In this document: positions 6,245-9,759 of the stretch, piece after piece
Layout: the number at the start of each line of letters is the position of its first letter
How positions within the stretch are numbered: position 1 is the first letter of the stretch
From: a bacterium
GTDB lineage: Bacteria > RBG-13-61-14 > DATKZS01
Assembly: GCA_963674965.2 (NCBI GenBank)
Contig: CAXXFL010000007.1
Coordinates: 1-64,000 of the forward strand
DNA: 64,000 nucleotides
Direction: 5' to 3'
Made by a program: the position numbers and the translations under genes
Notes under the pieces: generated by a model
Seen by the model: only the letters and a program-made list of their open reading frames with translations
Databases searched by the model: none
Told to the model about the DNA's origin: nothing

Positions 6245-6380
6245 GCCGATGATTTCACAAAAATTTTGAGGCGGCCCGATTATCGCCGCATATGGGGGTT
6301 TTCATAAAGAAAGGGCCTCGAAAGACCGCGCTGATCAATTCCACCCCTCACCGGAAATGACGCCCTCCCGTCGAATTTTG

Positions 6381-6409
6381 TTGAAAAATCCCACCCGCCG
6401 TGTTATATT
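6381..6409 (+). promoter_or_regulatory. sigma70-like promoter of tRNA-Lys
   Basis: TTGAAA-17 bp-TATATT with an extended -10 TG. Confidence 0.6.
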
Positions 6410-6471
6410 TAAACAATACGGGAACCGCGAGCGCGGTTCCTTTCTATTTACCGGCCTTTCGCCGGCTCAAA

Positions 6472-6548
6472 GGGCCGTTAGCTCAGTCTGGTAGAGCACC
6501 GGACTTTTAATCCGTTGGTCCGGGGTTCGAATCCCCGACGGCCCGCCA
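6472..6548 (+). tRNA. tRNA-Lys(UUU)
   Basis: GGGCCGT acceptor stem, D-arm GCTCAGTCTGGTAGAGC, anticodon loop CTTTTAA, T-loop GGTTCGAATCC, encoded CCA. Confidence 0.97.
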
Positions 6549-6663
6549 ACATCTTCAAGAAAAATTCTTTTAAATTCAGGCCTTTCAACGAAGGGGCGGT
6601 CCAACCCCCAAGGGGACGCGTCCGCTCAAAAACCCCTTTTTCCGGCCGTTTTTTCAATTTTTC

Positions 6664-6683
6664 TGTCACGTTTTTGTCACGTT
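6664..6683. repeat. Direct repeat TGTCACGTT x2, 11-bp period
   Basis: Copies at 6664-6672 and 6675-6683, just downstream of the tRNA. Confidence 0.6.
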
Positions 6684-6747
6684 ACGATACAGGATTGCAT
6701 ATTTACGGGGGCTTTTGGGTCCCAAAGGAGATGGTATGAATGAAGAG

Positions 6748-6958
6748 TTTTGAGGTGGTAAATACTTCAACTAGGTTAGGAATGATCTATTGGAGTAGGC
6801 GGGTCGTGGGCTGGATCGTTTTCGTGAGGCTTATGACCTCGTAAAGGAGATTAGTCAGCCCCGCGACTGGAGCGCCACCGTAAGGCTAGACCTTGTATAG
6901 GAGTTTGGCGGCCCCTCAAAGCGTGTCTACTCCGACCTTAGATCAAATTTATTTCTAG
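6748..6958 (+). ncRNA. Predicted IS110 bridge RNA, copy 1
   Basis: 5' hairpin 6750-6770. Outer stem 6783-6800/6925-6945 encloses two hairpins whose internal loops match the target and donor sites. Confidence 0.8.
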
Positions 6959-6972
6959 GGAGGAGTAAGGAA

Positions 6973-7989
6973 ATGGGAAGGTACATTGGAATCGATCTGC
7001 ACAGGAATTGTTTCACCTCTTGCGTCCTGGCCGAGAACGGACGGAACTATCTCAAGGACTGGCGTCTCGAGGATTTGGAGAAGTTTTGCTCGACGCTTCG
7101 CGAGTCCGACGAGATCGCGGTTGAGGTCACGGGCAACGTCCGCCTTTTTTACGACGCCGTTCGCGGCCTCGTTTCCCGCGTCGTGGTTGTCAACCCTCGC
7201 CAGTTCAAGGTCATCAGCGAGTCGGTCAACAAAACGGACGGCAACGACGCCAGACGCCTTGCCCTGTTTTTGTCCAAGGGCCTTTTGCCGGAGGTGAGGA
7301 TGCCGAACAAGGAACACGCTCAGGTTAAAAGCCTCACTCAAAGCCGGGACAAGCTGGTGAAGCTTCGCACGGCCTTGAAGAACAAGATCAACAACATCTG
7401 CTCGGCCCACGGCATCAACCTGAAGAAGGAATATCTTTCCAGCGAGAAGGGCCTTGAGACGGTGCAGGAGATACCTTTCGACCCCATGGTCAAGACCGAG
7501 GTCCGCGTCCTGGTGGAGCAGATTCGGGGCTTGAACGCCGGGGTCAAGGAGCTTGAGGCCGCCATCAAGGACTCGGGCAATCAGCTTCCCGGTCACAAGA
7601 ATTTGAAGAGCATAAAGGGTATCGGGGACCTTGGCTCGGCCATACTTTTGTCGGTGATCGTTGACGTCAAGGACTTCCCCGACGAGGGCAAGCTGGCCTC
7701 CTACTTCGGCATCGTCCCCCGGGTTAGCAACTCGAACGAGACCAGCCGCTCGGGCCGGATCACGAAGCGGGGCAACAAACTCGGCCGCACTACCCTGGTC
7801 CAATGCGCCCTCATCGCCAAGCGTTACAGCCCTTATTTGTCGAGCTTCTACGAGCGTATCAAGGCCAGGCGCGGCGCGGGCAAGGCCATCATCGCACTGG
7901 CTCGCAAATTTTTGAAGATCATTTACATCACTTTACAGGAAAACTTGATTTGGGAGGACTTCCCGAACGGAGTAATAGCGAAAGGCTGA
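6973..7989 (+). CDS. IS110-family recombinase/transposase
   Basis: RuvC-like DEDD (GIDLH, AVEVT, KTDGND) and C-terminal Tnp domain (ASYFGIVP..SNS..ITKRGN). Confidence 0.95.
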   Translation: MGRYIGIDLHRNCFTSCVLAENGRNYLKDWRLEDLEKFCSTLRESDEIAVEVTGNVRLFYDAVRGLVSRVVVVNPRQFKVISESVNKTDGNDARRLALFLSKGLLPEVRMPNKEHAQVKSLTQSRDKLVKLRTALKNKINNICSAHGINLKKEYLSSEKGLETVQEIPFDPMVKTEVRVLVEQIRGLNAGVKELEAAIKDSGNQLPGHKNLKSIKGIGDLGSAILLSVIVDVKDFPDEGKLASYFGIVPRVSNSNETSRSGRITKRGNKLGRTTLVQCALIAKRYSPYLSSFYERIKARRGAGKAIIALARKFLKIIYITLQENLIWEDFPNGVIAKG

Positions 7990-8025
7990 GTTTGTAAAAT
8001 AATTCAGCTAATTTAAAAGGTTGGG

Positions 8026-8054
8026 TAGACAACCATCATAGGAGATGGTATGAA
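8026..8054 (+). promoter_or_regulatory. RE-LE junction promoter of IS110
   Basis: TAGACA (right end of copy 1)-17 bp-TATGAA (left end of copy 2), with an extended -10 TG. Confidence 0.6.
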
Positions 8055-8061
8055 TGAAGAG

Positions 8062-8272
8062 TTTTGAGGTGGTAAATACTTCAACTAGGTTAGGAATGAT
8101 CTATTGGAGTAGGCGGGTCGTGGGCTGGATCGTTTTCGTGAGGCTTATGACCTCGTAAAGGAGATTAGTCAGCCCCGCGACTGGAGCGCCACCGTAAGGC
8201 TAGACCTTGTATAGGAGTTTGGCGGCCCCTCAAAGCGTGTCTACTCCGACCTTAGATCAAATTTATTTCTAG
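8062..8272 (+). ncRNA. Predicted IS110 bridge RNA, copy 2
   Basis: Same sequence as copy 1, directly downstream of the junction promoter. Confidence 0.8.
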
Positions 8273-8286
8273 GGAGGAGTAAGGAA

Positions 8287-9303
8287 ATGGGAAGGTACAT
8301 TGGAATCGATCTGCACAGGAATTGTTTCACCTCTTGCGTCCTGGCCGAGAACGGACGGAACTATCTCAAGGACTGGCGTCTCGAGGATTTGGAGAAGTTT
8401 TGCTCGACGCTTCGCGAGTCCGACGAGATCGCGGTTGAGGTCACGGGCAACGTCCGCCTTTTTTACGACGCCGTTCGCGGCCTCGTTTCCCGCGTCGTGG
8501 TTGTCAACCCTCGCCAGTTCAAGGTCATCAGCGAGTCGGTCAACAAAACGGACGGCAACGACGCCAGACGCCTTGCCCTGTTTTTGTCCAAGGGCCTTTT
8601 GCCGGAGGTGAGGATGCCGAACAAGGAACACGCTCAGGTTAAAAGCCTCACTCAAAGCCGGGACAAGCTGGTGAAGCTTCGCACGGCCTTGAAGAACAAG
8701 ATCAACAACATCTGCTCGGCCCACGGCATCAACCTGAAGAAGGAATATCTTTCCAGCGAGAAGGGCCTTGAGACGGTGCAGGAGATACCTTTCGACCCCA
8801 TGGTCAAGACCGAGGTCCGCGTCCTGGTGGAGCAGATTCGGGGCTTGAACGCCGGGGTCAAGGAGCTTGAGGCCGCCATCAAGGACTCGGGCAATCAGCT
8901 TCCCGGTCACAAGAATTTGAAGAGCATAAAGGGTATCGGGGACCTTGGCTCGGCCATACTTTTGTCGGTGATCGTTGACGTCAAGGACTTCCCCGACGAG
9001 GGCAAGCTGGCCTCCTACTTCGGCATCGTCCCCCGGGTTAGCAACTCGAACGAGACCAGCCGCTCGGGCCGGATCACGAAGCGGGGCAACAAACTCGGCC
9101 GCACTACCCTGGTCCAATGCGCCCTCATCGCCAAGCGTTACAGCCCTTATTTGTCGAGCTTCTACGAGCGTATCAAGGCCAGGCGCGGCGCGGGCAAGGC
9201 CATCATCGCGCTGGCTCGCAAATTTTTGAAGATCATTTACATCACTTTACAGGAAAACTTGATTTGGGAGGACTTCCCGAACGGAGTAATAGCGAAAGGC
9301 TGA
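8287..9303 (+). CDS. IS110-family recombinase/transposase (copy 2)
   Basis: Protein identical to 6973..7989. Confidence 0.95.
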   Translation: MGRYIGIDLHRNCFTSCVLAENGRNYLKDWRLEDLEKFCSTLRESDEIAVEVTGNVRLFYDAVRGLVSRVVVVNPRQFKVISESVNKTDGNDARRLALFLSKGLLPEVRMPNKEHAQVKSLTQSRDKLVKLRTALKNKINNICSAHGINLKKEYLSSEKGLETVQEIPFDPMVKTEVRVLVEQIRGLNAGVKELEAAIKDSGNQLPGHKNLKSIKGIGDLGSAILLSVIVDVKDFPDEGKLASYFGIVPRVSNSNETSRSGRITKRGNKLGRTTLVQCALIAKRYSPYLSSFYERIKARRGAGKAIIALARKFLKIIYITLQENLIWEDFPNGVIAKG

Positions 9304-9363
9304 GTTTGTAAAATAATTCAGCTAATTTAAAAGGTTGGGTAGACAACCATCATAGGAGATGAT

Positions 9364-9759
9364 ATGAATACCGGCACTAAATCGCTACTGTTCGGGACTC
9401 ATCAGTTCCTGCTCCATCCTCTTTTCGTGATTGCCGCCTGGAGGCGGCTTTACGGCGACTGGCCGGACGGGCCGACTCTTGTCGCCATCTTTGTCCATGA
9501 CTGGGGTTACTGGGGATGCGAGAAGATGGACGATAAGAAGGGAGAGGAGCACCCGATCAAGGGGGCCAAGATCGTCGAGCGGCTTTTTCCCGACCGGGGC
9601 CTGGGCGAGTTGACTCGGTATCACTCGCGGTTCCTGGCCAGGCGGGAGGGAGCCAGGGTGTCGCGGATGTGTCTGCCCGACAATTATGGCGTGGCCATGT
9701 ATCCCTGCCGGCTATCGACCAAAACCCCGTTAACTCCTCTGTTGCCTTGTTTCGCGTAA
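9364..9759 (+). CDS. HD-like hypothetical protein, possibly phage-derived and 3'-truncated
   Basis: H..H, VHDWGY, EEHP and YHS His pattern. SD AGGAG upstream. C-terminus looks degenerate. Confidence 0.6.
   Translation: MNTGTKSLLFGTHQFLLHPLFVIAAWRRLYGDWPDGPTLVAIFVHDWGYWGCEKMDDKKGEEHPIKGAKIVERLFPDRGLGELTRYHSRFLARREGARVSRMCLPDNYGVAMYPCRLSTKTPLTPLLPCFA

Follow-up and report, generated by a model that had tools for sequence, protein, structure and literature searches.

How does an insertion sequence (IS) that is present at nine sites of one bacterial genome recognize the places where it inserts, and does an RNA encoded in its own left end guide it there? This question is raised by a 64,000-nt stretch of DNA (the window: positions 1 to 64,000, forward strand, of contig CAXXFL010000007.1, GenBank assembly GCA_963674965.2) from a bacterium of the GTDB lineage RBG-13-61-14; DATKZS01, in which two head-to-tail copies of a 1314-bp IS110-family element lie on the plus strand at 6731–8044 and 8045–9358 (period 1314). 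An earlier annotation made from the letters alone (the original prediction) had read the left end of this element as an IS621-like bridge RNA with four guide segments, two for the target and two for the donor. We compared the element with its copies in the same genome and with relatives from metagenomes, and found that covariation in the homologs confirmed three of the four proposed segments. It is very probable, on this evidence, that the element is an active member of the IS110 family and that the 242 bp of its left end encode the guide it uses, an RNA of the bridge-RNA type.

The element and its relatives

Each copy consists of a 242-bp non-coding left end, a 338-codon gene and 55 bp past the stop codon. 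The transposase (recombinase) gene of copy 1 lies at 6973–7989 on the plus strand and that of copy 2 at 8287–9303; the bridge-RNA region of copy 2, also on the plus strand, has the copy 1 coordinates plus 1314. At element position 1166, copy 1 carries the A allele and copy 2 the G allele. The 338-aa product matched the Pfam domains DEDD_Tnp_IS110 (PF01548, E 2.5e-15) and Transposase_20 (PF02371, E 1.6e-21), and a search of the Protein Data Bank (PDB) returned the IS621 transposase at E 6.6e-13 for the whole sequence, the match being significant over the Tnp domain only. Residues D8, E51, D89 and D92 align to the YIGID, IEATG and NKTDxxDA motifs of IS621, in an N-terminal stretch that is not significant alone, and S254 aligns with the serine of the IS621 PRRYESG motif, chain residue 243; to judge from the position of the first Asp, the chain numbering would run 2 ahead, and this residue would be S241 of the paper. 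All five residues are invariant in 24 homologs. The protein is thus predicted to combine an N-terminal DEDD RuvC-like domain with a C-terminal Tnp domain carrying the putative catalytic serine, and the IS110-family identity given in the original prediction was borne out by both Pfam domains and the aligned active-site motifs.

The genome to which the window belongs (6.5 Mb, 7 contigs) has 9 sites occupied by 10 full, near-identical copies, besides a left-end remnant of 45 nt. Seven of the 10 copies are identical, and the other three have one common single-nucleotide polymorphism, A to G at element position 1166. The short DNA contigs represent the element by one collapsed 1303-nt unitig, at a depth of about 160–180 compared with about 9–17 for the flanks. 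At least 4456 database relatives of the protein were found at E ≤ 1e-30 among 8000 candidates scored; among the matches listed (120 proteins), identities were 67–100%, mostly on contigs of 1.1–2.7 kb. When metagenomes were scanned with a profile of 24 sequences, 592 stretches matched, including at least 267 confirmed relatives, and the best 80 loci (64–85% identity; L numbers below) were used. The alignment analyzed here comprised 61 left ends, those of the window and of 60 metagenome loci with a clean left end; the loci dropped were 16 with less than 255 nt upstream, L041 and L043 with an aberrant left junction, and L049 and L072 with a duplicated or ambiguous left-end start. Right-flank tests excluded L044, whose flank is another IS110 gene, and L060 and L081, which have repeated right-end pieces, and a self-insertion (L105) was excluded from the all-against-all position scan of the left flank. 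More distant relatives were an element on a Tardibacter plasmid (L121, 50% protein identity) and an element of genome G043 (L122, 56%). A search of 41 and 81 genomes found relatives only in G019 (a fragment cut by the contig end), G031 and G043, and a single-protein search of genome contigs returned one distant locus only, at 29% identity.

A conserved RNA fold in the left end

RNAalifold recovered two hairpins from the 61 left ends, at about 6804–6866 and 6873–6910. Across these sequences the predicted 40-pair structure was paired in 98.2% of cells, and 15 of the 40 pairs had changed on both sides, a number that was reached in 0 of 500 shuffles (mean 8.2), with 2–8 such pairs in slid controls. 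The single-sequence fold of 6735–6972 had a z of -4.97. Conserved G·U pairs at alignment columns 174:217 (56/61), 181:203 (61/61) and 99:166 (26/61) fix the strand of the RNA as plus.

Both hairpins are enclosed by P1, a long-range stem of 8 bp in which GAGTAGGC at 6793–6800 pairs with GTCTACTC at 6925–6932 in the alignment fold (helix 2; plus strand; 99.8% of cells paired, one pair with changes on both sides). The target-binding loop (hairpin A, 6804–6866, plus strand) has an outer stem at 6804–6813/6856–6866 and an inner hairpin at 6826–6840; 4 of 10 pairs in its helix 3 and 1 of 4 in helix 4 had changed on both sides. In the donor-binding loop (hairpin B, 6873–6910, plus strand; outer stem 6873–6877/6906–6910, inner hairpin 6881–6895), both-side changes were found in 5 of 8 pairs of helix 6 and one-sided changes only in helix 5. 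The long non-coding end of this element is therefore predicted to encode a conserved RNA with two internal-loop hairpins. By alignment fold and covariation, the two hairpins of the original prediction are real, its four strings (ATCGT at 6815–6819, AAAGGAGAT at 6843–6851, ACCGT at 6877–6881 and ATAGGAG at 6897–6903) were placed exactly, and its assignment of one loop to the target and the other to the donor was correct.

The target guide follows the insertion site

The 3′ strand of loop A carries AAAGGAG at 6843–6849 (plus strand), which has the same sequence as the left target's top strand, the Shine-Dalgarno half-site AAAGGAG at 6724–6730 (plus strand) of the left junction. When the aligned 7-mer of each element was compared with its own left flank, the two were the same in 51 of 61 elements. 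Among the 18 non-consensus guides, 14 matched their own flank at all four variable positions: the TAA variant agreed in 5/5 loci, GAA in 5/6 and CAA in 2/3, and the TGA, AGA and CACAGAG variants were matched, with GGA and TCA left unmatched. Overall, guide and flank agreed at 232 of 244 positions, compared with a mean of 202 and a maximum of 216 after permutation; 0 of 20000 permutations reached the observed value (p ≤ 5e-5, a value that overstates independence because the homologs are kin). Matches at positions -8 and -9 were at chance level (11/61 each), so the target guide is 7 nt long. The two distant relatives behave alike, with GAAGGAG in both guide and flank of L121 and AAAGGAG in both of L122. 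The alignment of homologs with their insertion sites, which had been suggested as a check, thus bears out the 3′ strand of loop A as the segment that specifies the left target. At L105, moreover, the target guide of one copy is interrupted exactly after AAAGGAG by a second, identical copy, and the same site is found uninterrupted 107 nt away on that contig, which makes a natural occupied/empty pair; the element is able to hit its own guide sequence.

The two bases that follow the guide, AU at 6850–6851 (plus strand), do not belong to the target match. They equal the first two bases of the donor right arm (AT), and the dinucleotide at this place follows the start of the left end through three covarying states, AU with AT in the main family, CU with CT in L121 and AC with AC in L122. 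In IS621, the two bases 3′ of the right target guide (RTG), called the handshake guide (HSG, nt 81–82), pair with donor positions 6–7 after strand exchange (Hiraizumi et al. 2024, PMC11208158), and the geometry here is the same when the site is read on the other strand. By this analogy, the AU probably acts like the IS621 handshake guide after strand exchange. The parse of AAAGGAGAU as a 7-nt left arm plus a 2-nt core, as originally put forward, does not hold, as the target match is 7 nt in total and the final AU tracks the donor.

The donor loop matches both element ends

The donor loop carries a match to each end of the element. Its 5′ strand, ACCGT at 6877–6881 (plus strand), is complementary, with one G·T pair, to the right donor arm ATGGT with which the left end starts (6731–6735, plus strand); in the predicted fold of the free RNA, A6877 and T6881 also close the flanking stems. 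Its 3′ strand, the donor guide ATAGGAG at 6897–6903 (plus strand), equals the last 7 bases of the right end, as had been claimed. ATAGGAG was invariant at the guide position in 61/61 left ends, and CATAGGAG was the terminal sequence of 49 right ends out of the 51 that a pattern search located among the 80 loci, the exceptions being L043, which ends in GGGG, and L060 with its repeated pieces.

On the 5′ side, where the homologs vary, compensatory changes support the proposed pairing of ACCGU with donor ATGGT. The general form of the strand, CC(G/A)U, pairs with left-end ATGG. In a clade of seven loci whose left ends start with ATGAG (L053, L090, L107, L113, L115 and L117; ACGAG in L102), the strand reads UC(G/A/U)U, so that the change of donor position 4 from G to A is compensated by C to U; L122 (ACGAT with UCAU) behaves likewise. 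In L121, whose left end starts with CTGG, the strand reads CCAG followed by CU, which compensates position 1 (A to C with U to G) and also pairs with the core. One mismatch each was found in the donor-loop pairing of L052, L067, L075 and L078.

The two bases after the donor guide (6904–6905, TT) are variable in homologs. When this dinucleotide was compared with the first two bases of the right flank, position 1 agreed in 21/37 loci (p=0.012) and position 2 in 14/37 (p=0.63), and the UU group never matched the right flank at position 1. The match is suggestive at most, and may reflect host composition.

Position of the core

The three junctions in the window read cccAAAGGAG|ATGGTATG on the left (6721–6738), atcATAGGAG|ATGGTATG between the copies (8035–8052) and ATAGGAG|ATGATATG on the right (9352–9366). 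From these the original prediction had placed an AT core after GGAG. At the nine sites of the genome, AAAGGAG ends the left flank in 9/9 cases and the right flanks are mutually unrelated (atgat, atact, gaagc, agtga, agata, tatta, gaagc, agatt and agact after GGAG). GGAG is present at both junctions of all nine sites, and AT follows it at only 2/9; the crossover must therefore lie in or to the left of GGAG, which excludes an AT core. A further limit comes from L078, in which the guide and left flank read CACAGAG and the donor guide and right end still read ATAGGAG, so that target and donor have only GAG in common.

Within GAG, the core is most likely AG, which is CT on the other strand; GA is also possible. 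We infer a preference for AG because it is the last pair matched by both 3′ guides, because the handshake-like dinucleotide follows directly after it, and because CT, its reading on the other strand, is the conserved IS110 core (Hiraizumi et al. 2024, PMC11208158). The half-site would then divide into a left target arm AAAGG (6724–6728) and the proposed core AG (6729–6730), both on the plus strand, and the target guide likewise into AAAGG and AG.

Weighing of alternative readings

The fourth proposed segment fared differently. The 5′ strand of the target loop, GATCGTTTTCGT at 6814–6825 (plus strand), is hypervariable and U-rich in homologs, and contains the ATCGT that had been taken as guide for the right target. 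At the site in the window this reading looks perfect, since AAAGGAGAT equals the flank and AUCGU pairs with ATGAT at 5/5 positions. At the other eight sites, AUCGU matched the right flank at 3, 2, 2, 1, 0, 2, 2 and 2 positions (mean 1.75/5), below the mean of 2.26/5 at 2029 unoccupied AAAGGAG sites of the genome, and in 35 homologs the aligned segment showed no complementarity to its own right flank (2.03 vs 2.18, p=0.88). Full pairing is thus confined to the window site, and the second position at which the guides had seemed to covary (AUCGU/ACCGU with ATGAT/ATGGT) is a coincidence of that site. An IS621-like parse with an AAAGGAG plus AU arm and core, AUCGU as right-target guide and four programmable segments is accordingly extremely unlikely: seven of nine sites have clean junctions without AT after GGAG, the AU follows donor changes in L121 and L122, and the claim that all four segments track target and donor falls with AUCGU and with AT at 2/9 sites. 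Transcription of the RNA from the minus strand would bring the layout nearer to IS621, and nothing except this recovery of the IS621 guide order speaks for it; the conserved G·U pairs would turn into A-C mismatches, and in 61/61 loci the transposase gene has the non-coding region upstream of it on its own strand, which leaves this reading the faintest of chances. A different possibility is that no RNA guide exists, that the transposase itself reads GGAG-type DNA, and that the left end is a translational or transcriptional leader with decoy ribosome-binding sites. The target is indeed a short (7 bp), ubiquitous motif, and both loop strands resemble Shine-Dalgarno sites. Such a leader leaves unexplained why a 7-mer 110 nt inside the element changes with the flank (14/18 variants, including the triple change of L078) and why the next dinucleotide follows the first two bases of the element itself; the recombinase is also a homolog of the IS621 transposase, an enzyme that owes its specificity to RNA (Durrant et al. 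2024, PMC11208160). We regard a guide-free element as very unlikely.

Several results nevertheless weigh against a bridge-RNA guide, or against parts of it. Besides the kinship that inflates the permutation statistics, 4 of the 18 variant and 6 of the 43 consensus guides differ from their flank, mostly with guide A against flank T at -7. The handshake-like dinucleotide has exceptions in L061 (CU with AT), L075 (AU with AG) and L102 (AU with AC), the T-to-C change of donor position 2 in L102 and L122 is uncompensated, and, as donor guide and right end are both invariant, covariation cannot test their match. An Rfam scan of 6300–9500 at E ≤ 1 found nothing in 6727–6972, leaving the left end without any match (only the tRNA at 6472–6545 reached the gathering score), and a promoter scan made no call where the right end joins the left end. 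The 5′ strand of loop A adds to this list. In the genome itself, the nine used sites scored no better than the 2029 free sites (p 0.15–0.85). Among homologs, the sole register with a signal aligns the last two bases of the strand with the core and the bases before them with right-flank positions +1 to +5; counting Watson-Crick pairs only, the match was 2.11 vs 1.66, a weak signal at p=0.002 uncorrected for about 30 combinations of register, span and pairing rule, and with wobble pairs p was 0.10. For the contiguous run, p was 0.057. An all-against-all position scan of the strand against both flanks gave no pair above noise. The first three bases of the strand are N-A-U in most elements whatever the flank, and so resemble a linker. 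An alternative is a variant of the bridge-RNA reading in which the 7-nt 3′ strand with its core alone reads the target, the U-rich 5′ strand is a linker, and the preference for start sites described below comes from selection, insertions inside genes being lost. We put both parts of this variant somewhat short of even chances. It agrees with the absent enrichment at the nine used sites, with the weak signal in homologs and with half-match recombination reported for IS621 (Xie et al. 2026, 10.64898/2026.08.31.748434). Three observations speak for the 5′ strand as a possible degenerate guide for the core and right target instead: the sole signalling register is the one predicted by analogy, single loci pair over long contiguous runs (8 bases in L042, 6 in L099), and the corresponding donor-loop strand of L121 pairs with core and arm (CCAG-CU). 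A pairing of CAU at the start of the 5′ strand with the start codon was also considered and rejected, as the spacing fits about 7 of about 30 loci in a hand tally, which is close to chance.

A possible mechanism and its relation to known guide RNAs

Under the bridge-RNA reading, an RNA transcribed from the plus strand (roughly 6745–6932) would consist of a 5′ hairpin and P1 enclosing the two internal-loop hairpins. The 3′ strand of loop A, AAAGG plus AG, would pair with the target's bottom strand and so specify a 7-bp Shine-Dalgarno site. In loop B, the 3′ strand AUAGG plus AG would represent the right end, and the 5′ strand (A)CCG(U) would pair with left-end ATGG(T). Recombination would then take place at the core common to target and donor; the element would land between the Shine-Dalgarno site and the start codon, co-oriented with the gene, its right end would restore GGAG, and an upstream host promoter would read into the bridge RNA and the transposase gene.

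Much of this resembles IS621. Both systems have a recombinase with DEDD and Tnp domains, an RNA whose coding region in the left end lies upstream of the gene, separate internal-loop hairpins for target and donor, guides that pair with opposite strands and overlap at a 2-nt core reading CT on one strand, and two bases beside the core-pairing end of the 3′ guide that match the other DNA (handshake). A short subterminal inverted repeat, 6 bp in this element, is a further likeness. The order of the guides differs. In the target-binding loop (TBL) of IS621 (PDB 8wt6), a stem is followed by the left target guide (LTG, nt 50–58), a stem-loop and the RTG (nt 77–80) (PMC11208158), whereas the guide identical to left target plus core stands on the 3′ side here. 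The IS621 layout implied by the original prediction is contradicted on this point, since the identical guides at 6843–6849 and 6897–6903 are both on 3′ strands and the IS621 LTG is on the 5′ side. The firm target match also comes to 7 nt in total rather than at least 11, a long-range stem encloses both loops, and the similarity of the proteins is low. If the site is read on the other strand, as N7-CT-CCTTT, the RNA becomes IS621-like, with a 5′ guide, a 3′ guide for arm plus core, and a handshake pair; judged from these matches, the donor site appears inverted relative to the RNA and transposase genes in comparison with IS621. Strand placement of target and donor sets orientation (Durrant et al. 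2024, PMC11208160), which makes such an inversion mechanistically easy.

The strand order itself is that of the IS1111-type seekRNAs of ISEc11, ISKpn4 and ISPa11, in which the complement of the top strand stands 5′ of the match to the bottom strand (Siddiquee et al. 2024, PMC11187229); in our donor loop, the top strand is complemented by ACCGU on the 5′ side and matched identically by AUAGGAG on the 3′ side. In the IS1111 group, the non-coding region is described as lying downstream of the transposase gene, with subterminal inverted repeats of 7–17 bp (PMC11208160). Here, by contrast, the RNA is upstream in 61/61 loci, the right end extends 55 bp past the stop codon in the window, and the longest inverted repeat is the 6-bp ACCATC/GATGGT; tblastn against IS5075 and IS4321 gave only about 26% identity. 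The seekRNA of ISEc21, an IS110-type element, shares the upstream non-coding region and short matches to both target strands, but has its bottom-strand match 5′ of the top-strand match, the opposite order (PMC11187229). We propose, tentatively and with more doubt than conviction, a third, undescribed guide-RNA layout of the IS110 family that combines an upstream RNA gene with the IS1111-type strand order and is tuned to ribosome-binding sites. One survey sorted 32,190 bridge RNAs into 86 models, many of which "visibly deviate" from IS621. Among the published texts that we consulted, we found none on this layout or on bridge-RNA targeting of ribosome-binding sites, and the supplements of two surveys (PMC11208160; COMPASS, 10.64898/2026.10.21.760802) may already catalogue the clade.

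The mechanism would be the known one, and what is new lies in the reversed layout, the ribosome-binding-site target and the consequences for the host gene and for tandem insertion. Were the third layout true, the element would ride on a host promoter, a mini-ORF would stop ribosomes, and the host gene would receive a replacement GGAG; the U-rich 5′ strand might read the purine-rich spacer degenerately, and a 7-mer that survives insertion and is present in the guide could lead to tandem arrays and to insertion into the element's own relatives. Bridge RNAs are a current genome-engineering platform, for which natural variants set design rules. In this respect, the present element suggests that, within the upstream-RNA group, the donor site can be turned around relative to the RNA and recombinase genes, and that natural covariation between the handshake dinucleotide and the donor is nonetheless kept. 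A firm one-sided guide of 7 nt seems to be enough for a successful element (10 copies, at least 267 relatives), which fits the half-match reports, and aiming at and regenerating ribosome-binding sites may permit low-cost insertion into 5′ leaders with borrowed host transcription.

Insertion at ribosome-binding sites

The target is a Shine-Dalgarno site just upstream of start codons. AAAGGAG occurs 2049 times in the genome on both strands, about 3.4 times the expectation from base composition. An ATG lies 4–10 nt downstream at 8/9 used sites, compared with 428/2029 free AAAGGAG sites, and 5–11 nt after GGAG in 35/45 metagenome right flanks. This enrichment at start sites could result from recognition or from the loss, by selection, of insertions that fall inside genes. 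In every case the element and the downstream gene have the same orientation. At the right junction (9352–9366, plus strand), element ATAGGAG is followed by the host spacer ATGAT and the start codon of an open reading frame (ORF) at 9364–9759, so that the host gene acquires a new GGAG from the right end, spaced as before. A comparable preference is found in mycobacterial IS110 elements of the IS900/IS901 type, which insert in a specific orientation between an AAGGAG-type ribosome-binding site and the start codon; the transposase gene of IS900 is antisense to the target gene, whereas the one studied here is co-oriented with it, and the proteins are not close.

At the left junction, the captured Shine-Dalgarno site is followed after 5 nt by a mini-ORF, ATG AAT GAA GAG TTT TGA (6736–6753, plus strand). 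Its ATG is present in 61/61 left ends, and the ORF has 2–14 codons, six or fewer in 41/61; it might stop ribosomes ahead of the structured RNA. Farther upstream, a promoter-like site of the host gene (TTGTCA, 18 nt, CATATT; 6674–6703, plus strand) would read into copy 1. By consensus match only, it was the single sigma-70-like hit in 6600–8300. These features suggest that the element borrows host transcription and spares the ribosome-binding site of the host gene. Where the right end joins the left end, a candidate promoter (TAGACA, 17 nt, TATGAA, with TG upstream) can be read by eye; the scan did not call it.

A 9-mer, GGAGTAGAC (GGGTAGAC in the right end of the window), is found both near the right end (8023–8030) and as the 5′ strand of P1 (6792–6800). 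Its possible roles include a repeat bound by protein, the -35 element of a promoter at the junction, and a second strand with which GUCUACUCC might pair.

The tandem pair and aberrant junctions

Between the two copies in the window, the right end meets the left end at ACCATCATAGGAG|ATGGTATGAAT (8030–8055, plus strand), the same sequence that a circular form would have; this junction contains the 6-bp inverted repeat ACCATC/GATGGT, the longest found. The two copies carry different alleles, which rules out both an assembly artefact and a plain duplication, and a contig from another sample of the same study (run X3, record 19) also bridges the copy-copy junction, over 7917–8283. The tandem pair is a second insertion beside a resident copy. 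With the 7-mer and the core wholly on one side of the crossover, the left junction of the resident still reads AAAGGAG; the resident copy therefore remains a target, which explains a tandem pair with the circle-type junction ATAGGAG|ATGG. Tandem complete IS110 modules have already been reported (n = 437), together with a lack of target immunity in IS110 (preprint 10.64898/2026.08.14.744561); compared with these, the present element is distinguished by a recognized 7-mer that survives whole at the left junction.

Related by-products are seen at a few metagenome loci, among them the self-insertion of L105 and several irregular ends. In L049 the left end starts twice, at points about 50 nt from each other, L060 carries the right-end piece TAGACATTATTCATAG about four times after the stop codon, and in L081 the last 19 nt of the right end are present twice; to judge from their sequences, these duplications look like products of one-sided or half-site recombination. 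In L043, the left junction AATGAG|CTGG and the right end ATAGGGG imply unequal cores at the two junctions, and in L041 the first bases of the left end are absent. Both may represent off-target or mismatched-core events.

Further observations on the relatives and the flanks

In many homologs (L045–L119), the right-end motif is set off from the stop codon by 120–410 additional GC-rich nucleotides, with palindromic pieces that are kept within groups of loci, compared with a right end of only 55 nt in the window; this sequence may represent passenger RNA or repeats. In L044, the right flank after GGAG is part of another IS110-type transposase (SVNKTDDNDARRLA motif), and this copy is located in, or fused to, another element. 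The 1.5-Mb genome G031 contains 17 matches to an IS110-family protein, at 33–34% identity. Upstream of the element in the window lies a tRNA gene (6472–6545; Rfam, 72 bits), and the roughly 170 nt behind it are found again downstream of another tRNA, on the minus strand of contig C6 (L011). There, only 41 nt from the start of the left end come after the same AAAGGAG, with unrelated sequence beyond; this is either what a deletion left of a copy or a duplicated flank that already held the element.

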